Positions 208-42,442 of a DNA stretch of 42,442 bases are shown here, piece after piece. The notes under the pieces are model-generated. The model searched no databases. It saw only the letters and a list, made by a program, of their open reading frames with translations, and was not told the origin of the DNA. This stretch comes from Eimeria praecox (lineage: Eukaryota), in contig OY986947.1 of the NCBI GenBank assembly GCA_963920595.1, forward strand, positions 6,510,001-6,552,442, given 5' to 3'. The translations under genes and the position numbers were made by a program. The first letter of the stretch is position 1. Every line of letters begins with the position of its first letter.

Positions 208-1992
208 GAGGTACGGCTTATATTGGGGTATAGCCCAAGCACGTGTTTATAAGGGATAGTGGGCAGTTTGGGTTTTTGGGTGCGCATGGAGTGGGCTGTG
301 GCGTCACCTTAGGGCTCTCTGTTTCGCAAGATGAGATTCCATTGTGTTGGGGATAAGCGTGCAATTGGAGTGCGATGCAGGTTGCATTGTTGCAGCCCGA
401 GAGGGAGGCGTGATTTGCAATTGAACAGGCTTGTGTGCATCAGAAAGTGCGTTTGTCCCTTAGATTGGGGAGGATGCGTGGTGTTCGTGGTGTGCGTATC
501 GGCATTTAGGATGTTGGGCGTTTCGCAGGGATTAGTTTGTCAGGGACTGTGTTGGGGTTGAGCGCTGTGAACAAGTTAAGCGACGGCGAGGGCTTGGTTG
601 CTGGTTAGCTTCGTGGGCATTTGCGTGAGCCATTGGATTGGGGTGGTTTGTTGCCTATGGACCTGTTTCAGAAAGTAAGGATTCTTGGGTGGGTGGAGTG
701 TGGCAGGTGGACGAGAATGTTCCTTGCGTTGTTTGCAAGGCAGGTCTGGATCTATGGTAGGGTAACCATGACCTGTTGAGGATGTTGACGGACGGCGACT
801 AGGAGGTGTTGGGCGCATGCGTTTCTATACAGCTGGCATGCAGCACACGTTTGGCTGGTTCCGGATGTAATGTTATGCATTAGGGGAGGGATGCGGAGCA
901 CTCGAGAAGCAGTGTTCGTTTGTTCACTCTAGCTCGTGTTGAATCATGATGGGCATGCAGGGTAGCTCGCCACCATGTCAATGCGTCAGAAAGTAGGCGT
1001 CGTGGCCAGCTTGCGCCCATATGCACTGCTGTATAAGTCAGCAGATATGGTCGAAACTTGTTTCGTGTTTTCGGGAATGAGTATGAATGCGTTATAAGGT
1101 GGAAAAGGAGGTGAAGCGTCAGGAGCAAGATATCGATACCGTAGGGCCCGAGTGGTAGTTTCATTGTTGAGGGTTCCGGTTTGCACCTGTGTGGGTTTTG
1201 TGGCAGGTGGATTGTGTGGAGGGGTAGCTGCTGGAGAGAGCATATATGGATGTTCCATGCCGCCGCGGAACAGAAAGTATGGAGAGGGTTGTGGGCATGC
1301 GATGGAACGGAGCGGTGTGTGTGACTGGGTGGCAAGAATCAGTATTTTGTTTATGCAGGGGGTGGTCAAATGAAGTGACTTAATTGTGGATGAGAGGGCG
1401 GGGGGGGTGGGGGGGAGGATTGGGACGTTGGTGGCGCATTTGGCAGCATTGGCTTGTTTCTTTAGTGTGGGGTATGGAGGTGTGAGCAAGGCGTGGGAGA
1501 AGGGGAGCATGGTGGTTCAATGCACCAGGAAGTATGTTTGGTTTTTCGTCTGCGTGGTTATTGGTAGGTGGGGTGGTCAGGTATTTGAGTATCGGGGCTT
1601 GAAGGAGGCGTGTTGCGGAGCACAATGTGTGTGTCTAATCAAGGGCTGCACCTGGTACCACCGAAAAAATGTTAGCTGGTGTTTTGTCGCTGAATTGTGT
1701 TATATGATTGAGGCCCAGGATAGGGTTTATTTGTGTGGCTTATGGAGGGGAGAGCTCGTACACTGTAGTCGTGAATGCGTTTAACATACCAGGAGGTACG
1801 GTCGACCTGCATTTGGCAAAAGAAGGAGTCGGGCGTTGACGCGGTGTAGACATTAGTGCATTTTACAGTTGGTTTGCAGGATTGCTGAAGTGTGGTTTGT
1901 GTGTGAGTGCAGTGAGCGTCAGGGATGATGCGTGTGAGATGGAGGGTACATGTCGTGCAATGTAGTCGTGAATGGGCTTCACTTATCAGGAA
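208..1992 (+). CDS. Eight candidate 3-nt microexons of array A unit 1 (E,K,K,K,K,E,E,E)
   Basis: cag|GAG|gtacgg 208-210; cag|AAA|gtgcgt 444-446; cag|AAA|gtaagg 672-674; cag|AAA|gtaggc 990-992; cag|AAA|gtatgg 1274-1276; cag|GAA|gtatgt 1529-1531; cag|GAG|gtacgg 1793-1795; cag|GAA|gtgcgt 1990-1992. Implied introns are ~195-330 nt. Confidence 0.75.
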
Positions 1993-10900: not shown

Positions 10901-13900
10901 AGCGTGCAGTTGGAGTGCGATGCAGGTTGCATTGTTGCAGCCCGAGAGGGAAGCATGAGTTGCAATTGAACAGGCTTGTGTGCATCAGGAAGTGCGTTTG
11001 TCCCTTAGATTGGGGAGGATGCGTGGTGTTCGTGGTGTGCGTATCGGCATTTGGGATGCTGGGCGTTTCGCAGGGATTAGTTTGTCAGGGACTTTGTTGG
11101 GGTTGAGCGCTGTGAACAAGTTAAGCGACGGCGAGGGCTTGGTTGCTGGTTAGCTTCGTGGGCATTTGCGTGAGCCATTGGATTGGGGTGGTTTGTTGCC
11201 TATGGACCTGTTTCAGAAAGTAAGGATTCTTGGGTGGGTGGAGTGTGGCAGGTGGACGAGAATGTTCCTTGCGTTGTGTGCAAGGCGGGTCTGGATCTAT
11301 GGTAGGGTAAGCATGGCCTGTTGAAGATGTTGACGGACGGCGTCTAGGAGCTGTTGGGCGCATGCGTTTCTATACATCTGGCATGCAGCACACGTTTGGC
11401 TGGTTCCGGATGTAATGTTATGCATTATGGAAGGGATGCGGAGCACTCGAGAAGCAGTGTTCGTTTGTTCACTCTAGCTCGTGTTGAATCATGATGGGCA
11501 TGCAGGGTAGCTCGCCACCATGTCAATGCGTCAGAAAGTAGGCGTCGTGGCCAGCTTGCGCCCATATGCACTGCTGTATAAGTCAGCAGATATGGTCCAA
11601 ACTTGTTTCGTGTTTTCGGGAATGAGTATGAATGCGTTAGAAGGTGGAAAAGGAGGTGAAGCGTCAGGAGCAAGATATCGATACCGTAGGGCCCGAGTGG
11701 TAGTTTCATTGTTGAGGGTTCCGGTTTGCACCTGTGTGGGTTTTGTGGCAGGTGGATTGTGTGGAGGGGTAGCTGCTGCAAAGAGCATATATGGATGTTC
11801 CATGCCGCCGCGGAACAGAAAGTATGCAGAGGGTCGTGGGCTTGCGATGGAACGGAGCGGTGTCTGTGACTGGGTGGCAAGAATCAGTATTTTGTTTAGG
11901 CAGGGGGTGGTCAAGTGAAGTGACTTAATTGTGGATGAGAGGGAGGGGGGGGTGGGGGGGAGGATTGGGACGTTGGTGGCGCATTTGGCAGCATTGGCTT
12001 GTTTCTTTAGTGTGGGGTATGGAGGTGTGAGCAAGGCGTGGGAGAAGGGGAGCATGGTGGTTCAATGCACCAGGAAGTATGTTTGGTTTTTCGTCTGCGT
12101 GGTTATTGGTAGGTGGGGTGGTCAGGTATTTGAGTAGCGGGGCTTGAAGGAGGCGTGTTGCGGAGCACAATGTGTGTGTCTAATCAAGGGCTGCACCTGG
12201 TACCACCGAAAAAATGTTAGCTGGTGTTTTGTCGCTGAATTGTGATATATGATTGAGGCCCAGGAGAGGGTTTATTTGTGTGGCTTATGGAGGGGAGAGC
12301 TCGTACACTGTAGTCGTGAATGCGTTTAACATACCAGGAGGTACGGCCGACTTGCATTTGGCAAAAGAAGGAGTCGGGCGTTGACGCGGTGTAGACATTA
12401 GTGCATTTTACAGTTGGTCTGCAGGATTGCTGAAGTGTGGTTTGTGTGTGAGTGCAGTGAGCGTCAGGGATGATGCGTGTGAGATGGAGGGTACATGTCG
12501 TGCAATGTAGTCGTGAATGGGCTTCACTTATCAGGAAGTGCGTAGGAGGTGGCGTGGTGAATGGTTGGAGGGCCTTGGTGGGCGTTATAGGGTAGTGGTG
12601 TTTCCAGTTAGGTTGCAAGGGCGGTGAAGGGTGGTTTGAATGGCAAAGGCGCCAGAGTGGCAATATTTTGAGGATGCGTTGTGGGGTGGGATCTGCATAG
12701 CGTCGGGAGTGGATACCAGGACATTTGATGAGTGGTTGTGCTGCATGGGGTAGCGTTGGTGGGTCTGCGGCGGCGCTTTAGCGTAGGTGAGCTGAGTAGG
12801 AAGCGCCTGACAGTAGCCTCCAGCGTGTTTGCGTGTGTGTGTGTGGAGTATTCACTATTCACCAGGAGGTACGGCTTATACTGGGGTATAGCCCAAGCAC
12901 GTGTTTATAAGGGATAGTGGGCAGTTTGGGTTTTTGGGTGCGCATGGAGTGGGTTGTGGCGTCACCCTAGGGCTGTCCGCTTCGCAAGATGAGATTCCAT
13001 TGTGTTGGGGATAAGCGTGCAGTTGGAGTGCGATGCAGGTTGCATTGTTGCAGCCCGAGAGGGAAGCATGAGTTGCAATTGAACAGGCTTGTGTGCATCA
13101 GGAAGTGCGTTTGTCCCTTAGATTGGGGAGGATGCGTGGTGTTCGTGGTGTGCGTATCGGCATTTGGGATGCTGGGCGTTTCGCAGGGATTAGTTTGTCA
13201 GGGACTTTGTTGGGGTTGAGCGCTGTGAACAAGTTAAGCGACGGCGAGGGCTTGGTTGCTGGTTAGCTTCGTGGGCATTTGCGTGAGCCATTGGATTGGG
13301 GTGGTTTGTTGCCTATGGACCTGTTTCAGAAAGTAAGGATTCTTGGGTGGGTGGAGTGTGGCAGGTGGACGAGAATGTTCCTTGCGTTGTGTGCAAGGCG
13401 GGTCTGGATCTATGGTAGGGTAAGCATGGCCTGTTGAAGATGTTGACGGACGGCGTCTAGGAGCTGTTGGGCGCATGCGTTTCTATACATCTGGCATGCA
13501 GCACACGTTTGGCTGGTTCCGGATGTAATGTTATGCATTATGGAAGGGATGCGGAGCACTCGAGAAGCAGTGTTCGTTTGTTCACTCTAGCTCGTGTTGA
13601 ATCATGATGGGCATGCAGGGTAGCTCGCCACCATGTCAATGCGTCAGAAAGTAGGCGTCGTGGCCAGCTTGCGCCCATATGCACTGCTGTATAAGTCAGC
13701 AGATATGGTCCAAACTTGTTTCGTGTTTTCGGGAATGAGTATGAATGCGTTAGAAGGTGGAAAAGGAGGTGAAGCGTCAGGAGCAAGATATCGATACCGT
13801 AGGGCCCGAGTGGTAGTTTCATTGTTGAGGGTTCCGGTTTGCACCTGTGTGGTTTTTGTGGCAGGTGGATTGTGTGGAGGGGTAGCTGCTGCAAAGAGCA

Positions 13901-25900: not shown

Positions 25901-28900
25901 AATATTGATCTCTGCGCGTTTCTTACCTTTGGTAGGAACAGCTTGTATGTCTGTGTAACGTGGCGCCAATCACGCTGCGGGCGGCAAGCCGAAAGCCGCT
26001 GCTGTTTGCATTGTTTATTGGAGTAACCTATGAGAAAGGATACATACTCTCTGCGCATCAGTACAGCGGAAGCACATGAGCCCTGGGAATTTGACGGACA
26101 GAAGCTGGGCCAGCTAGCAGAGCATGTAGAGCGGAGCACTTATTTGAATCAGAAAGTACGACGGATCAGTTCTGTATTTATATGGAAGAACGAATGCAGG
26201 CTTTCTATTCATTTGTTTCGCCGGTAGATGAGCCCAAATACGCCGCGCTGGTGATGCAAACAATACTGGAACTACCCTTGTTGCGGGCATAGGAGCGCTC
26301 TGTAGATATTTTTACTGTGTGTACTTGATGCGTTAGCATGCAAAGCAGACGTTGTAGCATGCACCGGCACCAATTTTACTGCTCCCGCATCGCCACGATA
26401 TCTCGTTGCCTGCTCCACAGAGAGTGCGCGTGGATGCAATGCATCATCATTAATTGTAAAGATATGCTCATATTGGAAAGGCTGCATAAATGGTGCACTT
26501 GCCATTTTCCTTCTATGCTTTTGACCCCGGCATGCGACGTATATAGCTGCAATATCAGAAAGCTTCTGGAGAAGCAACTATTTGCGGTTATTGCCACATG
26601 AGGTACATTTGTAGCCTTGAGCTTCAGGATGCGCCTCGGGCGATAGTTGTTGGATAAGAGAGGTTTGCGTTGTGCGTATAGAGCAGATACTTCGTATATC
26701 AGGTTGACGAGCGGTTGAAACGGGCACTTGGAATTTTAGAATGTGTAAAAAACAGTAACGCTGGATTTGACCCAGGTCTTGGAGATTAAACCGTTGCGCA
26801 CCTGATGTGAAACCGTCACGCTTTGAAAACGCTGCTGTGTGAGGCATGGTTTCTAATGTTTTATGCATTTTTCTTACTCAGTGCTTGCATTCGGTTGTAA
26901 GGCTAATATCACTTGCCGCCTTCAGATTAAGTTAAAGGGGGGAGTGTTCACTTTACACATTCTCCGTTTACGGACGGCTTAATGCTTGGCACAGTCCAGC
27001 GCTTCAAGGCGTAGAGAAAACTCGCCAAATGGCGCAAAGCAATCCTTCCATGGAAATGCGTTTCCTTCCAAAGTCCTATACATTTGATATAAATGGGGAT
27101 ACATGCTTAAGCTTCTTTTGGCTTGAAGCAGTGGACAGGGCAAACGAATCGGCTGCGGCCTTATCCTTTATCAGGCCTCGCACATTCGGAGTAAAGATGC
27201 TATGGGTACGCAGTCAATAAGCAATGGCATCGCGAGTGAGCCACAGAAATGTGCGACTCGCCTCGTGGCATTCGGTGCGTTGAGCGCTTGGACAGGGCTT
27301 TCTGCCCCGCCCGTTGCAATCTAGTGCAAGTGTGGATACACGATGAGCTAGTTCTTTGTTTTGTTACACGTTGATAGCCTCAGCGGGGCTCCTTAGTGGA
27401 ACAAGGTTTATTGAGGCTTGCCAACTAGAAAGACGTTTCCTAAGACCGTCCAAGGATCACCTTTCTTGAAATAGACTGTATGATAATTCTTTACCGGTAG
27501 AGCGGCATTGGCTTCTACATGGCTTCGTGATATTCAGAAACTCGCATGCCGCTTCCACCAGGCTTTATAGGAGGGTCAGATCAGTGCGCACGAAAATAGC
27601 ATAATTTCCATGAGCGTGCATCTTGTACTCCTTTGTACAGCCATCATAAGCGCCAGTCTCCGATGAAGAAAGCATGTGGCTTTTTAAACACAAGACACAC
27701 TCATGTGGTGCCGAAGCCTACCGTCACCGCAGTAGTTCACACATCGCTGCGGTCCCTAAGTTACCTTGAAGCCCGTACGTCGGCTTCTAACGGGCGTGCA
27801 GCACGTTAGAAAATGCCGCTAGCATATGAAAGCCAAGGGGAGGGTGGCCTTAGTCCATACCGAACACTACCCGTGCAGCTGTTACGTTCATTTGCTAACC
27901 GCGCAACAGGGGAAACTGCCACGCGCGCCGCCGCTGAGCGACCCCTTACGCATCCAATGCAGGCAGCGATCGTGCTGCATTTCGCTGGCTAACGTAACGT
28001 GAGGGGCTAGACGTCCGCCTTCGCGTCACGCTACTCAATCCACAAACCGTAATATATACTGCGGCAATTGCCCAAGTTGCTGTTTGCAATTTCTCTGTTA
28101 ATGGAAAGACAATTCATGGAGTAAGACAAAACTGAATTGAGCGTTTTGCCGCTTCCGACCTTCGGTATGTTTAGAGTAGAGGCCTGCATGTACAGAGAAA
28201 GAAGACGTCCTCGTACTCAGGATATGGCTCGGCAGCTGATTTATGTTACAACGCGAGCTTTTGCGCGGGTTTGGCAAGTTCAAGCGGTAGAGGCTGTGTG
28301 TAATGCGTATGGTGCTTGGTCGTGGTCGTCGACAAGAGGACTGAACATGCAGCTTGTCTAGGATTACTCGCTGTACAGTGTTGGGCAGGAAGCGCTGATG
28401 CCCTTGAAAAGCCGTCACGTACGTGTTGCGCATCCGCGAATGTCCTGAGAGATGCAAGGCGTGCCATGTTATGCAGAAATTGTGCACTTCACGAGAAGTG
28501 CGCCTTTTCCCCACACCAGAGTGTACGCTGTTTCTATGTTTTGCACCAGCAGATTGAGTTACAGAAACGTACACTGTGGAGGGGTGAGCGCACGCTCTAT
28601 GGGCGTGCATGCCTACATGCTTGTGGCAAGATCGAATGCGGTACAACACTGTGTTCACCATTTGAAAGTTGTTAATAAGAACGTGTTTATGTTGTCCGTG
28701 AATGTGGTCGGAGTGTGTTTGAGGGCTTGGCCGACGTAGAATGCAATTGCCATCCTTGCTCGCGAGGCTTGGGGAAGGGTACACTTGTGCTGCATTAGGT
28801 TGCAGCGTGGACTGAAATGTTTTAGCTATCGCGTTACTCCATTATTGTCCTACAGCTCGTGCGTGCTGTTCTTGTTGATGGGGTGTGTGCAGACACCTGG

Positions 28901-31900
28901 CGAGCAGTATTTGAGCAGCGGCGTCTTGAAGGAGAAGCCAGCGCATGCCTGTTGTTGGTTCCGTCATGTATTTAGTATCGCCTGCGGGATGCTTGATTCA
29001 CTTATTGCAGCACATTACAGGCATGGTGCATCAGTGGGCGTTGAATGCTGTCCGTGTGGGCAGAGGGGAACTGTACGTCTTTCAGCATAAGTACACTGCT
29101 AGCTGCAACAACCGAATATGCAACTAATGCGTGTGGTGAAGAACGACTAGTGTTGTATTGTGTGCCTGGTGCGGCAGGCATTTGCTTGCGTCGCAGAGTG
29201 TGAAAGGTTAGAAGTGGAATTGTGGTATGCGGCAAGGTGGTTTGCTGCACTTTGCTAAGCTTAGTGTGGCTTTTGCTCGGGAGGTGCACATATGATTTAT
29301 GAAATACTACTACGTAAGATAGTGGCTGTGTGGATCTGGGGCTCTTTGTGTTGTGTTGAAGGCTAGGCGTTCGCGGGCTTGGAGATTTGGCAGGAAGCAG
29401 GCGACACGGTGAACAAAGCTCGTTGGTTTTGACAATCGAGTTGGCCTGGAACACTTGGGGCATGTTGTGCCGTTTGTCTGTGTAATTGGATCTATCCCTT
29501 TGCAGGGGAGCAGTCAGCAGCGAAGGCCAGCATAAACGCACAGTGTGTATTGTGCTCCAGGTCAGGGTTGGTATTGCGTGCAGGACAATACGCGAGTACG
29601 TGTTTCACTGGAGTCCCATCAACAGATGCAAAGTGTACCCCGGTCGTGCGTTCGGCGTGTGTTATTGCAGGGCACACAACAATGCGGCTATTTGAGTCAG
29701 AAGGTACGATGCTAGGCCGCGGGTGCAACGATCTCTGCTTGCAGCTTCCTGCACAGCCGTGACTACAAAGGTTGCGGACGCCTGCTTTATTCACATCGAT
29801 AAGGAGCGCAGGGGCCTCAATAGAATAGATTTCGAGTAGCGGGGCTGTTTGTTGAGCTTGCGCACATACCGGAAGCTCTGCTTCCCACCGCTTAGCAAAG
29901 AGCGACAACGCACGAATTGCCGCACCCCCTCAAAACGAAATGCTGGAACATGCTCTACCACAAAGGGAATTTTTGATGCATTCCCGATACGCGTTGCAAA
30001 CGGCGTTCGCCATCTAGATCGCGGCATCATGCCTTCGAAACAGGCGGCATGGGGGCATTAGTGGCGGGGTGGCAGGCCCTTGCTGCCTCTCGCCCCTGGG
30101 GTATCAACTGTGCAGCAGTGGCATGCGTTCAGGTATAGCGTAGCCAACAAGCTTACTACCGCTTATGCACGCGTTTGGCCTCTCATGATTTTAGTTGAGG
30201 CACCTCACGTGCTAGGATTTGTTTGCGGATGTTCACGGCTAACGTGGCAGGTTCGGGGGTGGAGTAGAGGTTGAAAGTGAGCACACCGCGTACCGTAAAT
30301 GAGACTGTCGGAACTGTGTGGCGTTGCTGTTAGCAGTTTCATGGTAGATGGGAAACGAAGTAATGGAGTAAGGCAGCACTCGGCTAGGCATTTTGTCGCT
30401 TTCCGACCTTCGGTATGTTTAGGGTGGAGGTCTGCATGCACAGAGAAGGGGGACGTCTTGGTATTCAGGATGTGGCTCGGCAGCGGTTCTATGTTTAAGG
30501 GCGAGTCTTTGCGCGGGTTTGGCAAGTTCAAGCGGTAGAGGCCGTGTGCAATGCGTATGGTGCTTGGTCGTGGTCGTCGACAAGAGGACTGAACATGCAG
30601 CTTGTCTAGGATTACTCGCTGTACAGTGTTGGGCAGGAAGCGCTGATGCCCTTGAAAAGCCGTCACGTACGTGTTGCGCATCCGCGAATGTCCTGAGAGA
30701 TGCAAGGCGTGCCATGTTATGCAGAAATTGTGCACTTCATGAGAATGGCGCCTTTTCCCCACACCAGAGTGTACGCTGTTTCTATATTTTGCACCAGCAG
30801 ATTGAGTTACAGAAACGTACACTGTGGAGGGGTGAGCGCACGCTCTATGGGCGTGCATGCCTACATGCTTGTGGCAAGATCGAATGCGGTACAACACTGT
30901 GTTCACCATTTGAAAGTTGTTAATAAGAACATGTTTATGTTGTCCATGAATGTGGTCGGAGTGTGTTTGAGGGCTTGGCCGACGTAAAATGCAATTGCCA
31001 TCCTTGCTCGCGAGGCTTGGGGAAGGGTGCACTTGTGCTGCATTAGGTTGCAGCGTGGACTGGAATGTTTTAGCTATCGCGTTACTCCATTATTGTCCTA
31101 CAGCTCGTGCGTGCTGTTCTTGTTGATGGGGTGTGTGCAGACACCTGGCGAGCAGTATTTGAGCAGCGGCGTCTTGAAGGAGAAGCCAGCGCATGCCTGT
31201 TGTTGGTTCCGTCATGTATTTAGTATCGCCTGCGGGATGCTTGATTCACTTATTGCAGCACATTACAGGCATGGTGCATCAGTGGGCGTTGAATGCTGTC
31301 CGTGTGGGCAGAGGGGAACTGTACGTCTTTCAGCATAAGTACACTGCTAGCTGCAACAACCGAATATGCAACTAATGCGTGTGGTGAAGAACGACTAGTG
31401 TTGTATTGTGTGCCTGGTGCGGCAGGCATTTGCTTGCGTCGCAGAGTGTGAAAGGTTAGAAGTGGAATTGTGGTATGCGGCAAGGTGGTTTGCTGCACTT
31501 TGCTAAGCTTAGTGTGGCTTTTGCTCGGGAGGTGCACATATGATTTATGAAATACTACTACGTAAGATAGTGGCTGTGTGGATCTGGGGCTCTTTGTGTT
31601 GTGTTGAAGGCTAGGCGTTCGCGGGCTTGGAGATTTGGCAGGAAGCAGGCGACACGGTGAACAAAGCTCGTTGGTTTTGACAATCGAGTTGGCCTGGAAC
31701 ACTTGGGGCATGTTATGCCGTTTGTCTGTGTAATTGGATCTATCCCTTTGCAGGGGAGCAGTCAGCAGCGAAGGCCAGCATAAACGCACAGTGTGTATTG
31801 TGTTCCAGGTCAGGGTTGGTATTGCGTGCAGGACAATACGCGAGTACGTGTTTCACTGGAGTCCCATCAACAGATGCAAAGTGTACCCCGGTCGTGCGTT

Positions 31901-34900
31901 CGGCGTGTGTTATTGCAGGGCACGCACAACAATGCGGCTATTTGAGTCAGAAGGTACGATGCTAGGCCGCGGGTGCAACGATCTCTGCTTGCAGCTTCCT
32001 GCACAGCCGTGACTACAAAGGTTGCGGACGCCTGCTTTATTCACATCGATAAGGAGCGCAGGGGCCTCAATAGAATAGATTTCGAGTAGCGGGGCTGTTT
32101 GTTGAGCTTGCGCACATACCGGAAGCTCTGCTTCCCACCGCTTAGCAAAGAGCGACAACGCATGAATTGGCGCACCCCCTCAAAACGAAATGCTGGAACA
32201 TGCTCTACCACAAAGGGAATTTTTGATGCATTCCCGATACGCGTTGCAAACGGCGTTCGCCATCTAGATCGCGGCATCATGCCTTCGAAACAGGCAGCAT
32301 GGGGGCATTAGTGGCGGGGTGGCAGGCCCTTGCTGTCTCTGGCCCCTGGGGTATCAACTGTGCAGCAGTGGTATGCGTTCAGGTATAGCGTAGCCAACAA
32401 GCTTACTACCGCTTATGCACGCGTTTGGCCTCTCATGATTTTAGTTGAGGCACCTCACGTGCTAGGATTTGTTTGCGGATGTTCACGGCTAACGTGGCAG
32501 GTTCGGGGGTGGAGTAGAGGTTGAAAGTGAGCACACCGCGTACCGTAAATGAGACTGTCGGAACTGTGTGGCGTTGCTGTTAGCAGTTTCATGGTAGATG
32601 GGAAACGAAGTAATGGAGTAAGGCAGCACTCGGCTAGGCATTTTGTCGCTTCCGACCTTCGGTATGTTTAGGGTGGAGGTCTGCATGCACAGAGAAGGGG
32701 GACGTCTTGGTATTCAGGATGTGGCTCGGCAGCGGTTCTATGTTTAAGGGCGAGTCTTTGCGCGGGTTTGGCAAGTTCAAGCGGTAGAGGCTGTGTGCAA
32801 TGCGTATGGTGCTTGGTCGTGGTCGTCGACAAGAGGGCTGAACATGCAGCGTGTCTAGGATTACTCGCTGTACAGTGTTGGGCAGGAAGCGCTGATGCCC
32901 TTGAAAAGCCGTCACGTACGTGTTGCGCATCCGCGAATGTCCTGAGAGATGCAAGGCGTGCCATGTTATGCAGAAATTGTGCACTTCACGAGAAGTGCGC
33001 CTTTTCCCCACACCAGAGTGTACGCTGTTTCTATGTTTTGCACCAGCAGATTGAGTTACAGAAACGTACACTGTGGAGGGGTGAGCGCACGCTCTATGGG
33101 CGTGCATGCCTACATGCTTGTGGCAAGATCGAATGCGGTACAACACTGTGTTCACCATTTGAAAGTTGTTAATGAGAACGTGTTTATGTTGTCCGTGAAT
33201 GTGGTCGGAGTGTGTTTGAGGGCTTGGCCGACGTAGAATGCAATTGCCATCCTTGCTCGCGAGGCTTGGGGAAGGGTACACTTGTGCTGCATCAGGTTGT
33301 AGCGTGGACTGGAATGTTTTAGCTATCGCGTTACTCCATTATTGTACTACAGCTCGTGCGTGCCGTTCTTGTTGATGGGGTGTGTGCAGACACCTGGCGA
33401 GCACTATTTGGGCGGCGGCGTCTTGAAGGAGCAGCCAGCGCATGCCTGTTGTTGGTTCCGTCATGTATTTAGTATCGCCTGCGGGATGCTTGATTCACTT
33501 ATTGCAGCACATTACAGGCATGGTGCATCAGTGGGCGTTGAATGCTGTCCGTGTGGGCAGAGGGGAACTGTACGTCTTTCAGCATAAGCACACTGCTGGC
33601 TGCAACAACCGAATATGCAACTAATGCGTGTGGTGAAGAACGACTAGCGTTGCATTGTGCGCTTGATGCGGCAGGCATTTGCTTGCGTCGCAGAGTGTGA
33701 AAGGTTACAAGTGGAATTGTGGTATGCGGCAAGGCGGTTTGCTGCACTTTGCTAAGCTTAGTGTGGCTTTTGCTCGGGAGGTGCACATATGATTTATGAA
33801 ATACTACTACGTAAGATAGTGGCTGTGTGGATCTGGGGCTCTTTGTGTTGTGTTGAAGGCTAGGCGTTCGCGGGCTTGGAGATTTGGCAGGAAGCAGGCG
33901 ACACGGTGAACAAAGCTCGTTGGTTTTGACAATCGAGTTGGCCTGGAACACTTGGGGCATGTTGTGCCGTTTGTCTGTGTAAATGGATCTATCCCTTTGC
34001 AGGGGGGCAGTCAGCAGCGAAGGCCAGCATAAACGCACAGTGTGTATTGTGCTCCAGGTCAGGGTTGGTATTGCGTGCAGGACAATACGCGAGTACGTGT
34101 TTCACTGGAGTCCCATCAACAGATGCAAAGTGTACCCCGGTCGTGCGTTCGGCGTGTGTTATTGCAGGGCACGCACAACAATGCGGCTATTTGAGTCAGA
34201 AGGTACGATGCTAGGCCGCGGGTGCAACGATCTCTGCTTGCAGCTTCCTGCACAGCCGTGACTACAAAGGTTGCGGACGCCTGCTTTATTCACATCGATA
34301 AGGAGCGCAGGGGCCTCAATAGAATAGATTTCGAGTAGCGGGGCTGTTTGTTGAGCTTGCGCACATACCGGAAGCTCTGCTTCCCACCGCTTAGCAAAGA
34401 GCGACAACGCATGAATTGGCGCACCCCCTCAAAACGAAATGCTGGAACATGCTCTACCACAAAGGGAATTTTTGATGCATTCCCGATACGCGTTGCAAAC
34501 GGCGTTCGCCATCTAGATCGCGGCATCATGCCTTCGAAACAGGCAGCATGGGGGCATTAGTGGCGGGGTGGCAGGCCCTTGCTGTCTCTCGCCCCTGGGG
34601 TATCAACTGTGCAGCAGTGGTATGCGTTCAGGTATAGCGTAGCCAACAAGCTTACTACCGCTTATGCACGCGTTTGGCCTCTCATGATTTTAGTTGAGGC
34701 ACCTCACGTGCTAGGATTTGTTTGCGGATGTTCACGGCTAACGTGGCAGGTTCGGGGGTGGAGTAGAGGTTGAAAGTGAGCACACCGCGTACCATAAATG
34801 AGACTGTCGGAACTGTGTGGCGTTGCTGTTAGCAGTTTCATGGTAGATGGGAAACGAAGTAATGGAGTAAGGCAGCACTCGGCTAGGCATTTTGTCGCTT

Positions 34901-37900
34901 CCGACCTTCGGTATGTTTAGGGTGGAGGTCTGCATGCAGAGAGAAGGCGGACGTCTTGGCATTCAGGATGTGGCTCGGCAGCGGTTCTATGTTTAAGGGC
35001 GAGTCTTTGCGCAGGTTTGGCAAGTTCAAGCGGTAGAGGCTGTGTGTAATGCGTATGGTGCTTAGTAGTGGTCGTCGACAAGAGGACTGAACATGTAGCT
35101 TGTCTAGGATTACTCGCTGTACAGTGTTGGGTAGGAAACGCTCATGTCCTTGAAAAGCAGTCATGTAGATGCTGCTGTTGCCCATGCACAAAATGGAACG
35201 CGGTGCCATTTTATGGAGACAATGTGCACTTCATGAGAATGGCGCCTTTTCCCCACACTAGGGTGTACGCTGTTTCTATGTTTTGCTCCAGCAGATTGAT
35301 ATACAGAAACGTACACTGTGGAGGGGTGAGCGCACGCTCTATGGGCGTGCATGTTCGTCGGAAGCGCGAATGCGGAACAGCACTGTGTTCACCACTTTGA
35401 AGTTGCTAACAGGAACGTGTTGGCCATCCTTGCTCGCGAGGCTTGGGGAAGGGTACACTTGTGCTGCATTAGGTTGCAGCGTGGACTGGAATGTTTTAGC
35501 TATCGCGTTACTCCATTATTGTACTACAGCTCGTGCGTGCCGTTCTTGTTGATGGGATGTGTGCAGACATCTGGCGAGCACTATTTGGGCGGCGGCGTCT
35601 TGAAGGAGAAGCCAGCGCATGCCTGTTGTCGGTTCCCTCATGTATTTAGTATCGCCTGCGGGATGCTTGATTCACTTATTGCAGCACATTACAGGCATGG
35701 TGCATCAGTAGGCGTTGAATGTTGCTCCTGTGGGCAGAGGGGAACTGTACGTCTTTCAGCATAAGCACACTGCTGGCTGCAACAACCGAATATGCAACTA
35801 ACGCGTGTGGTGAAGAACGACTAGTGTTGCATTTTGCGCTTGATGCGGCAGGCATTTGCTTGCGTCGCAGAGTGTGAAAGGTTAGAAGTGGAATTGTGGT
35901 ATGCGGCAAGGTGGTTTGCTGCACTTTGCTAAGCTTAGTGTGGCTTTTGCTCGGGAGGTGCACATATGATTTATGAAATACTACTACGTAAGATAGTGGC
36001 TGTGTGGATCTGGGGCTCTTTGTGTTGTGTTGAAGGCTAGGCGTTCGCGGGCTTGGAGATTTGGCAGGAAGCAGGCGACACGGTGAACAAAGCTCGTTGG
36101 TTTTGACAATCGAGTTGGCCTGGAACACTTGGGGCATGTTGTGCCGTTTGTCTGTGTAATTGGATCTATCCCTTTGCAGGGGAGCAGTCAGCAGCGAAGG
36201 CCAGCATAAACGCACAGTGTGTATTGTGTTCCAGGTCAGGGTTGGTATTGCGTGCAGGACAATACGCGAGTACGTGTTTCACTGGAGTCCCATCAACAGA
36301 TGCAAAGTGTACCCCGGTCGTGCGTTCGGCGTGTGTTATTGCAGGGCACGCACAACAATGCGGCTATTTGAGTCAGAAGGTACGATGCTAGGCCGCGGGT
36401 GCAACGATCTCTGCTTGCAGCTTCCTGCACAGCCGTGACTACAAAGGTTGCGGACGCCTGCTTTATTCACATCGATAAGGAGCGCAGGGGCCTCAATAGA
36501 ATAGATTTCGAGTAGCGGGGCTGTTTGTTGAGCTTGCGCACATACCGGAAGCTCTGCTTCCCACCGCTTAGCAAAGAGCGACAACGCATGAATTGGCGCA
36601 CCCCCTCAAAACGAAATGCTGGAACATGCTCTACCACAAAGGGAATTTTTGATGCATTCCCGATACGCGTTGCAAACGGCGTTCGCCATCTAGATCGCGG
36701 CATCATGCCTTCGAAACAGGCAGCATGGGGGCATTAGTGGCGGGGTGGCAGGCCCTTGCTGTCTCTCGCCCCTGGGGTATCAACTGTGCAGCAGTGGTAT
36801 GCGTTCAGATATAGCGTAGCCAACAAGCTTACTACCGCTTATGCACGCGTTTGGCCTCTCATGATTTTAGTTGAGGCACCTCACGTGCTAGGATTTGTTT
36901 GCGGATGTTCACGGCTAACGTGGCAGGTTCGGAGGTGGAGTAGAGGTTGAAAGTGAGCACACCGCGTACCGTAAATGAGACTGTCGGAACTGTGTGGCGT
37001 TGCTGTTAGCAGTTTCATGGTAGATGGGAAACGAAATAATGGAGTAAGGCAGCACTCGGCTAGGCATTTTGTCGCTTCCGACCTTCGGTATGTTTAGGGT
37101 GGAGGTCTGCATGCAGAGAGAAGGCGGACGTCTTGGCATTCAGGATGTGGCTCGGCAGCGGTTCTATGTTTAAGGGCGAGTCTTTGCGCAGGTTTGGCAA
37201 GTTCAAGCGGTAGAGGCTGTGTGTAATGCGTATGGTGCTTAGTAGTGGTCGTCGACAAGAGGACTGAACATGTAGCTTGTCTAGGATTACTCGCTGTACA
37301 GTGTTGGGCAGGAAGCGCTGGTGCCCTTGAAAAGCAGTCATGTAGATGCTGCTGTTGCCCATGCACAAATGGAGCGCGGTGCCATTTTATGGAGACAATG
37401 TGCACTTCATGAGAATGGCGCCTTTTCCCCACACTAGGGTGTACGCTGTTTCTATGGTTTGCATCACCAGATTGATTTACAGAAACGTACACTGTGGAGG
37501 GGTGAGCGCACGCTCTATGGACGTGCATGTTCGTAGGAAGCGCGAATGCGGAACAACACTGTGCTCACCACTTTGAAGTTGCCAACAGGAACGTGTTGGC
37601 CATCCTTGCTCGCGAGGCTTGGGGAAGGATACACTTGTGCTGCATTAGGTTGTAGCGTGGACTGGAATGTTTTAGCTATCGCGTTACTCCATTATTGTAC
37701 TACAGCTCGTGCGTGCTGTTCTTGTTGATGGGGTGTGTGCAGACACCTGGCGAGCACTATTTGGGCGGCGGCGTCTTGAAGGAGCAGCCAGCGCATGCCT
37801 GTTGCCGGTTCCGTCATGTATTTAGTATCGCCTGCGGGATGCTTGATTCACTTATTGCAGCACATTACAGGCATGGTGCATCAGTGGGCGTTGAATGCTG

Positions 37901-40900
37901 TCCCTGTGGGCAGAGGGGAACTGTACGTCTTTCAGCATAAGCACACTGCTAGCTGCAACAACCGAATATGCAACTAATGCGTGCGGCGAAGAACGACTAG
38001 CGTTGCATTGTGCGCCTGGTGCGGCAGGCATTTGCTTGCGTCGCAGAGTGTGAAAGGTTACAAGTGGAATTGCGGTATGCGGCAAGGCGGTTTGCTGCAC
38101 TTTGCTAAGCTTAGTGTGGCTTTTGCTCGGGAGGTGCACATATGATTTATGAAATACTACTACGTAAGATAGTGGCTGTGTGGATCTGGGGCTCTTTGTG
38201 TTGTGTTGAAGGCTAGGCGTTCGCGGGCTTGGAGATTTGGCAGGAAGCAGGCGACACGGTGAACAAAGCTCGTTGGTTTTGACAATCGAGTTGGCCTGGA
38301 ACACTTGGGGCATGTTGTGCCGTTTGTCTGTGTAATTGGATCTATCCCTCTGCGCGGGAGGTATCAGGAGTGAAGGCCAGCATAAACGCGCAGTGTGTAT
38401 TCTGTTCCAGGTCAGGGTTGGTATTGTGTGGAGGACAATACGCGAGTACGTGTTTCGCTGGAGTCCTCGTATATGCGCAGTGTATCATGGTCGTGCCTAC
38501 GGTGGTGCACTGCGTGCAATTGAATGCGGCTATTTGGCTCAGGGGGTGCGATGTTAGGCCGGCTGTCCAGCACGGGTGTTGCCTGCATGCCAGCGTTCAA
38601 CAGAGGCGTCACTCCACAAGTCCTGGAATTCTGCTTTAGCAAGCCGATTAGAACCGCGGAATTGCTGAGACGTTGCATATCGAATAGGGTGATGGGGTAC
38701 CTATTGAATTGCGCACATCTTGCAAGCAATCTTTCACATGGTTTAACCACACGAGCATGCGCATCAGCACAAAACGCCACGCTGGTGCAGAAACATACTT
38801 GTGCCTTTGCTCTACGTTGCTGTCTCAAGCGTTTTATTACGACAATGGTCGCCCCCTTTGGCTGGCCGATGTTCACGGCTAGCCTGTCATTCTCGACGTG
38901 GTATAAAGGTTGAACGTGAGCACACCGCGTACCGTAAATGAGACTATCAGCACTTTGTGGCGTTGCTGCTAGTAGTTTCATGGTAGATGGGAAACGAAAT
39001 AATGGAGTAAGGCAGCACTCGGCTAGGCATTTTGTCGCTTCCGGCCTTCGGTATGTTTAGAGTGGAAGTCTGCATGCACAGAGAAGGGGGACGTCTTGGT
39101 ATTCAGGATGTGGCTCGGCAGCGGTTCTATGTTTAAGGGCGAGTCTTTGCGCGGGTTTGGCAAGTTCAAGCGGTAGAGGCTGTGTGTAATGCGTATGGTG
39201 CTTAGTAGTGGTCGTCGACAAGAGGATTGAACATGCAGCTTGTCTAGGATTACTCGCTGTACAGTGTTGGGTAGGAAACGCTCATGGCCTTGAAACGCAG
39301 TCATGTAGATGCTGCTGTTGCCCATGCACAAAATGGAACGCGGTGCCATTTTATGGAGACAATGTGCACTTCATGAAAATGGCGTCTTTTCCCCACACCA
39401 GAGTGTACGCTGTTTCTATGCTTTTCTCCAGCAGATTGATTTACGGAAACGTACACTGTGGAGGGGTGAGCGCACGCTCTATGGGCGTGCATGCCTACAT
39501 ACTTGTGGCAAGATCGAATGCGGTACAACACTGTGTTCACCATTTGAACGTTGTTAATAAGAACGTGTTTATGTTGTCCATGAATGTGGTCGGAGTGTGT
39601 TTGAGGGCTTGGCCGACGTAGAATGCAATTGCCATCCTTGCTCGCGAGGCTTGGGGAAGGGTGCACTTGTGCTGCATTAGGTTGCAGCGTGGACTGGAAT
39701 GTTTTAGCTATCGCGTTACTCCATTATTGTACTACAGCTCGTGCGTGCCGTTCTTGTTGATGGGATGTGTGCAGACATCTGGCGAGCACTATTTGGGCGG
39801 CGGCGTCTTGAAGGAGAAGCCAGCGCATGCCTGTTGTCGGTTCCCTCATGTATTTAGTATCGCCTGCGGGATGCTTGATTCACTTATTGCAGCACATTAC
39901 AGGCATGGTGCATCAGTAGGCGTTGAATGTTGCTCCTGTGGGCAGAGGGGAACTGTACGTCTTTCAGCATAAGCACACTGCTGGCTGCAACAACCGAATA
40001 TGCAACTAACGCGTGTGGTGAAGAACGACTAGTGTTGCATTTTGCGCTTGATGCGGCAGGCATTTGCTTGCGTCGCAGAGTGTGAAAGGTTAGAAGTGGA
40101 ATTGTGGTATGCGGCAAGGTGGTTTGCTGCACTTTGCTAAGCTTAGTGTGGCTTTTGCTCGGGAGGTGCACATATGATTTATGAAATACTACTACGTAAG
40201 ATAGTGGCTGTGTGGATCTGGGGCTCTTTGTGTTGTGTTGAAGGCTAGGCGTTCGCGGGCTTGGAGATTTGGCAGGAAGCAGGCGACACGGTGAACAAAG
40301 CTCGTTGGTTTTGACAATCGAGTTGGCCTGGAACACTTGGGGCATGTTGTGCCGTTTGTCTGTGTAATTGGATCTATCCCTTTGCAGGGGAGCAGTCAGC
40401 AGCGAAGGCCAGCATAAACGCACAGTGTGTATTGTGTTCCAGGTCAGGGTTGGTATTGCGTGCAGGACAATACGCGAGTACGTGTTTCACTGGAGTCCCA
40501 TCAACAGATGCAAAGTGTACCCCGGTCGTGCGTTCGGCGTGTGTTATTGCAGGGCACGCACAACAATGCGGCTATTTGAGTCAGAAGGTACGATGCTAGG
40601 CCGCGGGTGCAACGATCTCTGCTTGCAGCTTCCTGCACAGCCGTGACTACAAAGGTTGCGGACGCCTGCTTTATTCACATCGATAAGGAGCGCAGGGGCC
40701 TCAATAGAATAGATTTCGAGTAGCGGGGCTGTTTGTTGAGCTTGCGCACATACCGGAAGCTCTGCTTCCCACCGCTTAGCAAAGAGCGACAACGCATGAA
40801 TTGGCGCACCCCCTCAAAACGAAATGCTGGAACATGCTCTACCACAAAGGGAATTTTTGATGCATTCCCGATACGCGTTGCAAACGGCGTTCGCCATCTA

Positions 40901-41916
40901 GATCGCGGCATCATGCCTTCGAAACAGGCGGCATGGGGGCATTAGTGGCGGGGTGGCAGGCCCTTGCTGTCTCTCGCCCCTGGGGTATCAACTGTGCAGC
41001 AGTGGTATGCGTTCAGGTATAGCGTAGCCAACAAGCTTACTACCGCTTATGCACGCGTTTGGCCTCTCATGATTTTAGTTGAGGCACCTCACGTGCTAGG
41101 ATTTGTTTGCGGATGTTCACGGCTAACGTGGCAGGTTCGGGGGTGGAGTAGAGGTTGAAAGTGAGCACACCGCGTACCGTAAAAGAGACTGTCGGAACTG
41201 TGTGGCGTTGCTGTTAGCAGTTTCATGGTAGATGGGAAACGAAGTAATGGAGTAAGGCAGCACTCGGCTAGGCATTTTGTCGCTTCCGACCTTCGGTATG
41301 TTTAGGGTGGAGGTCTGCATGCAGAGAGAAGGCGGACGTCTTGGCATTCAGGATGTGGCTCGGCAGCGGTTCTATGTTTAAGGGCGAGTCTTTGCGCGGG
41401 TTTGGCAAGTTCAAGCGGTAGAGGCTGTGTGTAATGCGTATGGTGCTTAGTAGTGGTCGTCGACAAGAGGACTGAACATGTAGCTTGTCTAGGATTACTC
41501 GCTGTACAGTGTTGGGCAGGAAGCGCTGGTGCCCTTGAAAAGCAGTCATGTAGATGCTGCTGTTGCCCATGCACAAAGGGAGCGCGGTGCCATTTTATGG
41601 AGACAATGTGCACTTCATGAGAATGGCGCCTTTTCCCCACACTAGGGTGTACGCTGTTTCTATGGTTTGCATCACCAGATTGATTTACAGAAACGTACAC
41701 TGTGGAGGGGTGAGCGCACGCTCTATGGACGTGCATGTTCGTAGGAAGCGCGAATGCGGAACAACACTGTGCTCACCACTTTGAAGTTGCCAACAGGAAC
41801 GTGTTGGCCATCCTTGCTCGCGAGGCTTGGGGAAGGATACACTTGTGCTGCATTAGGTTGTAGCGTGGACTGGAATGTTTTAGCTATCGCGTTACTCCAT
41901 TATTGTACTACAGCTC
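208..41916 (+). CDS. Putative spliced gene (internal part; start and stop not in window) made of ~110 consecutive 3-nt microexons; inferred product is a Glu/Lys-rich E4K4-type helical repeat followed by an (S/G)LK repeat
   Basis: YAG|NNN|GTRNG motifs occur on the + strand throughout the window. The concatenated triplets are stop-free in phase 0 and read (EKKKKEEE)n...D QGAAAPLKRT SLKSLKSLKGLKGLGSLKGL. AG and GT are retained in every repeat copy while the triplets vary. No transcript evidence is available. Confidence 0.72.
1396..1424 (+). other. G-tract (GGGCG8TG7AGGATTGGG), present once per array A unit; potential G-quadruplex
   Basis: Long G runs are seen directly in every unit. The structure is only inferred. 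Confidence 0.4.
2321..20992 (+). CDS. 72 further candidate 3-nt microexons in array A units 2-10
   Basis: The same eight sites occur in each unit. The second exon is GAA instead of AAA in units 4-7 (6764, 8876, 10989, 13102). The last exon is GAC (20990-20992). Confidence 0.72.
17669..17732. repeat. 32-bp tandem duplication unique to array A unit 9
   Basis: gaggtgttgggcgcatgcgtttctatacagct (17669-17700) is followed by gaggtgtagggcgcatgcgtttctatacagct (17701-17732). Together with a 1-bp deletion near 17817 this explains the 2135-bp period. Confidence 0.95.
21553..21555 (+). CDS. Candidate 3-nt microexon CAA (Gln)
   Basis: gaaacag|CAA|gtacgc; the flank resembles array A exon 5 (gcggaacag|AAA|gtatg). 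Confidence 0.65.
22245..22247 (+). CDS. Candidate 3-nt microexon GGG (Gly)
   Basis: gaatcag|GGG|gtatgt. Confidence 0.65.
22634..22636 (+). CDS. Candidate 3-nt microexon GCT (Ala)
   Basis: ggcccag|GCT|gtgcgt. Confidence 0.65.
22927..22929 (+). CDS. Candidate 3-nt microexon GCG (Ala)
   Basis: acaacag|GCG|gtaggt. Confidence 0.62.
23180..23182 (+). CDS. Candidate 3-nt microexon GCA (Ala)
   Basis: attccag|GCA|gtacgt. Confidence 0.65.
24513..24515 (+). CDS. Candidate 3-nt microexon CCA (Pro)
   Basis: gtgtcag|CCA|gtgcgt. Confidence 0.58.
25942..25944 (+). CDS. Candidate 3-nt microexon CTT (Leu)
   Basis: ggaacag|CTT|gtatgt. Confidence 0.62.
26153..26155 (+). CDS. Candidate 3-nt microexon AAA (Lys)
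   Basis: tatttgaatcag|AAA|gtacga; 19/21 identical to the array B Lys site tatttgagtcag|AAG|gtacga. Confidence 0.7.
26421..26423 (+). CDS. Candidate 3-nt microexon AGA (Arg)
   Basis: tccacag|AGA|gtgcgc. Confidence 0.63.
27475..27477 (+). CDS. Candidate 3-nt microexon ACT (Thr)
   Basis: cttgaaatag|ACT|gtatga (TAG acceptor). Confidence 0.5.
28520..41916 (+). CDS. Twenty candidate 3-nt microexons in array B (SLK SLK SLK GLK GLG SLK GL)
   Basis: cag|AGT|gtacgc at 28520, 30768, 33017, 39402; tag|GGT|gtacgc at 35262, 37438, 41646; cag|CTC|gtgcgt at 28856, 31104, 33353, 35530, 37706, 39738, 41914; cag|AAG|gtacga at 29701, 31951, 34200, 36377, 40585; cag|GGG|gtgcga at 38543. Confidence 0.68.
38350..38915. 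other. Divergent/replaced segment within array B unit 5
   Basis: The sequence drifts from the unit consensus from ~38350, is hard to align over ~38570-38865, and rejoins at gatgttcacggcta (~38868) and ggttgaacgtgagcacaccgcg (~38908). The unit is 212 bp shorter than the previous one. Confidence 0.9.
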
Positions 41917-42442
41917 GTGCGTGCTGTTCTTGTTGATGGGGTGTGTGCAGACACCTGGCGAGCACTATTTGGGCGGCGGCGTCTTGAAGGAGCAGCCAGC
42001 GCATGCCTGTTGCCGGTTCCGTCATGTATTTAGTATCGCCTGCGGGATGCTTGATTCACTTATTGCAGCACATTACAGGCATGGTGCATCAGTGGGCGTT
42101 GAATGCTGTCCCTGTGGGCAGAGGGGAACTGTACGTCTTTCAGCATAAGCACACTGCTAGCTGCAACAACCGAATATGCAACTAATGCGTGCGGCGAAGA
42201 ACGACTAGCGTTGCATTGTGCGCTTGATGCGGCAGGCATTTGCTTGCGTCGCAGAGTGTGAAAGGTTAGAAGTGGAATTGCGGTATGCGGCAAGGCGGTT
42301 TGCTGCACTTTGCTAAGCTTAATGTGGCTTTTGCTCGGGAGGTGCACATATGATTTATGAAATACTACTACGTAAGATAGTGGCTGTGTGGATCTGGGGC
42401 TCTTTGTGTTGTGTTGAAGGCTAGGCGTTCGCGGGCTTGGAG

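Follow-up and report, generated by a model that had tools for sequence, protein, structure and literature searches.

The plus strand of a 42,442-nt stretch of Eimeria praecox DNA (contig OY986947.1; below, the window) carries 111 copies of a composite 11-mer, YAG-NNN-GTRNG, in which what looks like a splice acceptor is followed, exactly three nucleotides on, by what looks like a splice donor; the minus strand carries 13. That the motif represents an acceptor next to a donor splice signal appears well supported by its strand bias, its context and its donor set. Beyond this, we tentatively favour a reading in which the 111 composite sites would be working splice sites of one very long plus-strand transcript that is shortened stepwise to 3-nt exons, and we put the probability of this reading at roughly 0.4. 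The window falls into three parts, namely tandem array A, a segment of unique DNA and tandem array B, and the chain of composite sites is continuous through all of them on this single strand, from a first triplet at 208-210 to a last one at 41914-41916, where the original prediction for this DNA had placed them.

Composite sites and the signals around them

Array A (1-21202) consists of 10 head-to-tail units of 2104-2135 nt with 97-100% identity and eight composite sites per unit, the last unit being cut at about 21202; its arrangement, near-constant unit length and high identity are those of a tandem satellite. The unique segment spans 21203-28075. Array B (28076-42442) holds about 6.5 units of 1964-2249 nt with three composite sites each and continues past the window end. 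Mutual similarity among array A, array B and the unique part was not detectable, array boundaries excepted. When the spacer in YAG-N(k)-GTRNG is allowed to vary across the whole window, the predicted spike at k=3 is confirmed, since the remaining spacings between 0 and 15 give 3-56 matches on the plus and 0-20 on the minus strand. At uniform base composition the pattern should turn up once per 4 kb (1/4096), as had been calculated correctly.

For a de-duplicated set of 11,892 nt, composed of one A unit (12863-14975), the junction with the unique segment and the segment itself (20987-28516) and one B unit (30765-33013), the excess at k=3 over other spacings and over the minus strand holds: 24 matches lie on the plus and 3 on the minus strand, with 2-12 on the plus strand for the remaining spacings from 0 to 20. 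The 391 YAG and 174 GTRNG of this set lead one to expect 5.7 sites by chance, and 1000 dinucleotide-preserving shuffles gave a mean of 5.43 (standard deviation 2.28) and a maximum of 13. At spacings other than three the matches mostly use GTGTG or GTGGG, which stem from the G+T-rich background; donors at k=3 typically read GTACG, GTGCG or GTATG. Seen from the donor side, pentamers of the form GT(ACG/GCG/ATG/AAG/AGG) have a YAG at -6 in 26 of 89 cases on the plus strand versus 2 of 52 on the minus strand. Intact motifs occupy 79 of 80 positions in array A and all 20 in array B, and the unique segment has 12 matches, two of which (21064 and 24514) we take as chance. We accept 21 distinct sites, eight in array A, ten in unique DNA and three in array B, while some of the statistics below use all 24. 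Sites are spaced 197-331 nt apart in array A (455 nt across a lost site and 349 nt in a unit with a 32-nt duplication), 208-1426 nt in unique DNA and 268-1067 nt in array B.

Evidence from outside the motif supports the proposal, also made in the original prediction, that it combines an acceptor and a donor. The G fraction at positions -12 to -1 before the YAG is 0.190, compared with 0.332 +/- 0.026 for other YAGs of the same three regions, and none of 20,000 region-stratified permutations was as low. Position -5 holds a pyrimidine in 23 of 24 sites and position -10 a T in 15, and G is never found at -1 (0/24). In 11 of 24 sites an A occupies -6, which is 8 nt from the junction, and the branch-like pentamer TYDAY places its A exactly at that distance in 5 of 21 sites versus 5 of 367 background YAGs; among the sites it occurs at no other distance within 4-25 nt, and the remaining ones are without a clear branch candidate. 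Beyond the search pattern, donors have C or T at +4 (20/24) and, less often, T at +6 (11/24). In a leave-one-out profile, the 21 sites scored a median of 14.8 bits, with 11.6 bits for the best other position on either strand of the collapsed set (32291). An extended donor consensus together with a YAG that follows a G-poor, pyrimidine-rich tract is what one finds at U2-type GT..AG introns. So to our minds, it is because one-strand sites across three unrelated domains are combined with such a tract, with an A at fixed distance in a subset and with a narrow range of GTRYG donors that a role as splice signals is supported.

Composition fits in with this. The plus strand is G+T-rich throughout, with a GC skew of about 0.43 in array A, 0.04-0.11 in the core of the unique segment and about 0.18 in array B, and both G>C and T>A skews are positive on it across the whole window. 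The sense strand of a transcription unit usually shows skews of this direction, which would fit the plus strand as the sense strand of one transcription unit. Modest support for splice signals also comes from the diverged fifth unit of array B, where the motif is intact at two sites despite 2 and 3 substitutions (five changes), the chance of surviving such changes being about 0.42 each.

How many of these sites count as separate observations depends on their origin. The 22 intervals between sites measure 194-328 nt in array A, 208-1426 nt in unique DNA and 333-1063 nt in array B, and BLAST among them finds matches only between the 3' ends of intervals A6 and A7 (51 nt, 78%) and at the two array boundaries. 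Local alignment against shuffles of the 28 array-A interval pairs singled out A6/A7 as a clear case (z 9.7), with z values of 4.9 and 4.6 for two weakly similar pairs. As the intervals are mutually unrelated by both comparisons, we rejected an introner or mobile-intron family. Motif-centred 14-15-mers are common to array-A sites 1 and 7 and to sites 2 and 8, and some array-A sites probably descend from a common ancestor. In every test run, the ten sites of the unique segment and the three of array B proved independent, and overall there are about 21 independent sites.

All individual sites lie on the plus strand. In array A, site 1 (12863-12873, CAG-GAG-GTACG) is found again at 205, 2318, 4422, 6525, 8637, 10750, 14976, 17080 and 19215. 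Site 2 (13099-13109, CAG-GAA-GTGCG) has the triplet GAA in 4 of 10 units and AAA in the other 6, and site 3 (13327-13337, CAG-AAA-GTAAG) uses the donor GTATG in 3 of 10. Site 4 (13645-13655, CAG-AAA-GTAGG) is preceded by a branch-like TCAAT with its A 8 nt upstream of the junction; site 5 (13929-13939) reads CAG-AAA-GTATG, and site 6 (14184-14194, CAG-GAA-GTATG) has TTCAAT upstream. Site 7 (14448-14458, CAG-GAG-GTACG), with TTTAAC upstream, has a 15-mer in common with site 1, and site 8 (14645-14655, CAG-GAA-GTGCG), with TTCAC upstream, a 14-mer in common with site 2. The lost position is site 2 of unit 2 (2554-2564), whose donor reads GTCCG. In the last copy of site 8 (20987-20997) the triplet is GAC, not GAA, and the interval that follows (560 nt) exits the array and ends in unique DNA. 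There, the chain goes on with CAG-CAA-GTACG (21550-21560), CAG-GGG-GTATG (22242-22252, TTCGAT upstream), CAG-GCT-GTGCG (22631-22641), CAG-GCG-GTAGG (22924-22934), CAG-GCA-GTACG (23177-23187, TTTGAC upstream), CAG-CCA-GTGCG (24510-24520, overlapped by the chance match at 24514), CAG-CTT-GTATG (25939-25949), CAG-AAA-GTACG (26150-26160), CAG-AGA-GTGCG (26418-26428) and TAG-ACT-GTATG (27472-27482). The other match taken as chance, TAG-GCT-GTAAG at 21064-21074, fits the loose motif with a low profile score of 5.5 bits and arose through changes found in the last A unit only.

The first site of array B is CAG-AGT-GTACG (30765-30775), which is TAG-GGT-GTACG in 3 of 7 units, two changes that keep the motif. 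Its second site, CAG-CTC-GTGCG (31101-31111), is the same in 7 of 7 units. The third, CAG-AAG-GTACG (31948-31958), reads CAG-GGG-GTGCG in the diverged unit (38540), where three changes in the 11-mer again keep the motif. CAG-GCA-GCATG at 32291-32301 has an acceptor-like context and recurs in array B; it may, though this is uncertain, add to each B unit a fourth site whose donor is GC.

How the sites may be used

In the reading that we favour, the locus would be transcribed on the plus strand as one very long unit, each interval of 194-1426 nt would be spliced out as an intron, with a single 3-nt exon left per site. Since the two signals of a site, with 3 nt between them, could hardly be bound together, the sites would be used sequentially from 5' to 3', like recursive splice sites. 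Exactly 3 nt separate AG from GT at all accepted sites, so that on paper the internal exons would come in multiples of three, much as in micro-exon genes (MEGs). AG directly abutting GT, the arrangement of ratchet points, stays at background (k=0: 14 matches in the window as a whole and 4 after de-duplication), the spike being at k=3. A spacing of three would preserve any reading frame through gain or loss of units and through loss or skipping of sites, and this neutrality could have allowed both tandem arrays to expand inside the transcription unit without breaking it. At the lost site (2554-2564), for instance, use of the others would fuse the neighbouring intervals to 452 nt and drop one triplet with the frame kept. 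What is joined in this way may be a by-product or a low-complexity linker and not a conventional folded protein.

Several observations weigh against such a transcript. We found no conventional exon, promoter, transcript end, start or stop in the window, and both ends of the chain leave it inside arrays A and B. Moreover, array A looks like a high-copy satellite, which would make the transcript enormous. Finally, purifying selection on the motif was not detectable among the window's own repeat copies, whose variation is too small to reveal it: 4 of 88 motif columns vary as against 5.0% overall (permutation P 0.55), and for columns -20 to +13 the figure is 9 of 272 (P 0.16).

Could the signals serve to attract the splicing machinery with splicing itself mostly incomplete? 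Here, spliceosomal parts (U1, U2 and their helpers) would bind, and the repeat RNA would act as a factor sink or scaffold; as a variant, the bound factors might suppress premature 3' end formation or R-loops, or trigger small-RNA silencing of the satellite. We regard this as unlikely, though worth serious thought, as two signals only 3 nt apart would presumably hinder each other and a repeat of this kind has been described in the chicken, LL2R (10.64898/2026.03.19.712899, to the extent that the available part of that account goes). R-loops are plausible given the array-A skew of 0.43 and the G runs at about 1395-1420. Poly(A) signals in a de-duplicated set (12863-14975, 21203-28070 and 30765-33013) provide a hint in the same direction that is too weak to use, with AATAAA 0 times on the plus and 5 times on the minus strand, but ATTAAA 4 times on the plus and once on the minus strand. 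However, every site pairs an acceptor with a donor, in balanced numbers, and the intervals are of a length usual for introns, whereas a sink needs neither an exact 3-nt spacing nor a chain that carries on through 7 kb of unique DNA.

A quite different question is whether the joined triplets are translated. If the sites were spliced and the product translated, the locus would be a protein gene assembled one codon per 3-nt exon from well over a hundred exons, which strikes us as distinctly improbable. The 2.1-kb 'satellite' unit would then be a module of eight one-residue exons that specifies a helical spacer of four Glu and four Lys, to which array B would add a period of three residues and the unique segment a short linker. 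The array-A triplets, in site order GAG, AAA or GAA, AAA, AAA, AAA, GAA, GAG and GAA, are indeed all Glu or Lys codons, with four of each in 5 of 10 units, five and three in another four, and one triplet lost in unit 2. ER/K single alpha-helices alternate between blocks of roughly four acidic and four basic residues, and the likeness of the array-A period to them is striking on paper. A triplet of the form purine-A-purine has a chance of about 0.06 at array-A base composition, the spacing of exactly three would preserve the frame, and helical rods from arrays of tiny exons do exist, as chicken BG genes with their 21-nt heptad exons illustrate (PMC4046983).

The eight triplets are, however, not independent draws, given the 14-15-mers shared by sites 1/7 and 2/8, and the sole variation at a Lys position is from Lys to Glu. 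In addition, the joined message would contain 12 consecutive A per unit, and runs of 12 A stall ribosomes in many eukaryotes. Purine triplets could equally meet the need of a 3-nt exon to be held at both splicing steps, an idea based on the U-rich loop of U5 small nuclear RNA, which contacts exon ends. The original prediction had stressed that the joined triplets are stop-free; this is true but carries no weight as evidence because T is absent from the array-A triplets and from the first position of every accepted triplet, and rarity of T as the base after an acceptor is ordinary. The triplets are fairly described as an 'ordered low-complexity protein', yet their order may partly reflect shared ancestry of the sites. 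Thus, the hidden coding gene of about 110 one-codon exons proposed at the outset is not demonstrated: start, stop and flanking exons are missing from the window, stop-freeness is trivial and array A is satellite-like.

That the 11-mer is no splicing signal at all, being a DNA or RNA site of another factor, a relic of repeat origin or a composition artefact, is similarly improbable: while the eight sites of array A may partly descend from few ancestors (witness their common 14-15-mers and the shared A6/A7 3' ends), all ten accepted sites of the unique segment lie on the plus strand against a background about equal per strand, a one-strandedness for which a DNA-binding site would have no reason in unique DNA, the motif joins both canonical intron-end signals to a G-poor tract outside the search pattern, shuffles never reach the observed count, and the intervals are neither a transposon or introner family nor, by folding of 14 of them, structured RNAs and have no Rfam match.

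Should the sites be used as in the stepwise splicing that we favour, they would form the longest known chain of minimal exons and offer a natural test of limits on exon size and packing. Satellite-like arrays would then be organised for splicing, whether this lets a gene withstand expansion of its repeats or assembles a repetitive protein one codon at a time; with translation, amplification of a 'satellite' would directly lengthen a protein rod. Genes of this type in microbial eukaryotes would be missed by open reading frame finders, repeat maskers and spliced aligners alike. If the sites do no more than bind splicing factors, they would still be a clean example of satellite RNA shaped to engage the spliceosome.

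Other features of the window

The layout described above draws in part on contigs from four sequencing runs (X1-X4), the ones listed for 20500-30499; none is recorded as RNA, and all behave as DNA. The end of array A was placed by loose contig ends at 21202 together with a 213-nt homology of intervals A8 and S1; the unique segment is covered free of differences by one X1 and one X2 contig, and for array B a joint that 'goes back 2247' is present in X1 and X2. Summed contig depth relative to the unique part, which is not a copy number, ranges from about 65x (X1) to about 200x (X2) for array A and is 5-15x for array B. Run X3 might be mistaken for RNA on account of its uneven depth. We rejected this because its contigs that break off in the unique segment have loose ends which start or finish with GATC (e.g. 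23625, 24296, 25140, 26167 and 27579), and low-depth joints connect 20828/20829 and 21148 with many places up to 9 kb off (20500-30499). We infer that X3 is a proximity-ligation (Hi-C-like) DNA library cut at GATC with chimeric contig ends. Joints with GT..AG ends were absent from X1-X4, whose contigs are DNA-like and hence uninformative on splicing. In X4, from organism B (6.6 million letters of contigs), array-A sequence is present at 20500-21202 with a depth of about 5 and 8 differences over 510 nt, as is a 175-nt piece of array B at 29243-29417; nothing of the unique segment was seen, so only repeated parts are visible in this run.

Within the arrays, a 32-nt tandem duplication (17669-17733; 2.0 copies, 96% match) lies in unit 9 of array A and explains why this unit has 2135 nt and a spacing of 349 instead of 318 between its sites 3 and 4. 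A G run made up of two blocks of 7-8 G occurs once per array-A unit (for example at about 1395-1420, on a strand with a GC skew of 0.43) and would be a candidate for a G-quadruplex or an R-loop if the plus strand is transcribed. The fifth unit of array B (37435-39398) is shorter (1964 nt) and clearly more diverged, with all three composite sites kept. CpG is not depleted (observed/expected 0.80-0.96); in the de-duplicated set used for the poly(A) signals the dinucleotide GC is over-represented (1.31-1.47) and TC/GA under-represented.

Conventional genes were sought as well. The window has 83 stop-to-stop frames of at least 100 amino acids, mostly on the C+A-rich minus strand, and none of 61 scanned frames of at least 70 amino acids between 21000 and 33100 matches Pfam at E<=0.01. 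Long stop-free minus-strand frames occur in both arrays (up to 294 amino acids; e.g. 30208-31089 and 19987-20634); those that overlap the scanned range of 21000-33100, such as the first of these two, had no Pfam match, and the low T and G content of the minus strand is the best explanation for such frames. Rfam gave no match at gathering score in the whole window and none at E<=1 in 12800-33100, and the window contains no transfer RNA. Folding of the 14 intervals of up to 400 nt was no better than that of shuffles on either strand (z -1.74 to +2.32). With no Rfam match and no excess folding of these 14 intervals, we rejected a host gene for small nucleolar RNAs or microRNAs. An exact 24-base stretch of array A had no matches in genome contigs and none in metagenome contigs. 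We also dismissed array A or B as a known 2.2-kb repeated parasite gene, for which two polymerase chain reaction primers had no matches at up to 3 mismatches.

Relation to known systems

As a kind, the finding would extend microexons and recursive splicing. Trichomonas and Giardia introns have a fused motif of branch site and acceptor, and a branch-like A at a short fixed distance, here 8 nt (5/21 sites by the strict pattern, A in 11/24), is reminiscent of it; our motif (TTYRAY) is looser, concerns only part of the sites and implies nothing on the organism. The MEGs of schistosomes and other flatworms have about a dozen exons of 6-36 nt, larger end exons and a signal peptide. The chain described here would share with them a run of symmetrical exons, a variable low-complexity product and the frame-neutral loss or skipping of exons, but all its exons would be of 3 nt, and the ends of the gene would lie beyond the window.

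A repetitive helical segment from tandem tiny exons, with one structural period to each unit and a length that evolves by gain and loss of units, would have a counterpart in chicken BG genes, where a cytoplasmic coiled-coil tail is made from many 21-nt repeat exons (PMC4046983). In the available part of that work there is one heptad per exon with evidence from RNA and protein, whereas here each exon would supply a single residue, with eight exons to a 2.1-kb unit. Long arrays within a transcription unit, transcribed on one strand and in interplay with the splicing machinery through their repeat RNA, are likewise on record. Y-linked genes of Drosophila have gigantic introns filled with satellites (PMC6508621, PMC11207136), and the chicken LL2R repeat, about 160 kb long and transcribed from one strand, has dense predicted donors and gathers splicing factors on lampbrush loops; its donors exceed acceptors threefold and it is thought not to splice (10.64898/2026.03.19.712899). 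As far as the available portions of these accounts go, neither is described as divided by paired sites, in contrast to the one-to-one pairing in the present window.

Our full-text literature search found isolated 3-nt exons and no description of a chain of them. Long reads confirmed 27 exons of 3 nt, spread over 26 genes, in Coprinopsis cinerea (PMC12230235), and single tiny exons are found elsewhere, such as micro-exon 8 of Drosophila hth (PMC7392893) and those of human MAP4K5 and RPS24 (PMC8632122, PMC12686416). These, too, are three bases between ordinary GT..AG introns, which indicates that the spliceosome can handle exons of this size. In the parts of these reports at hand, nearly all of them come one per gene in otherwise normal genes, unlike the up to 111 consecutive ones considered here with no larger exon in the window. 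Closest in mechanism would be the ratchet points of Drosophila, at which juxtaposed acceptors and donors allow long introns to be removed stepwise (10.1101/006163; PMC8605326). Both systems have juxtaposed, strand-specific acceptor-donor pairs in a very long stretch, whose removal would here also be stepwise from 5' to 3'. Going by the available sections of these papers, ratchet points abut (0 nt), leave nothing in the messenger RNA and are few per intron; in the window a triplet would remain per step, with one site every 0.2-1.4 kb over at least 42 kb.

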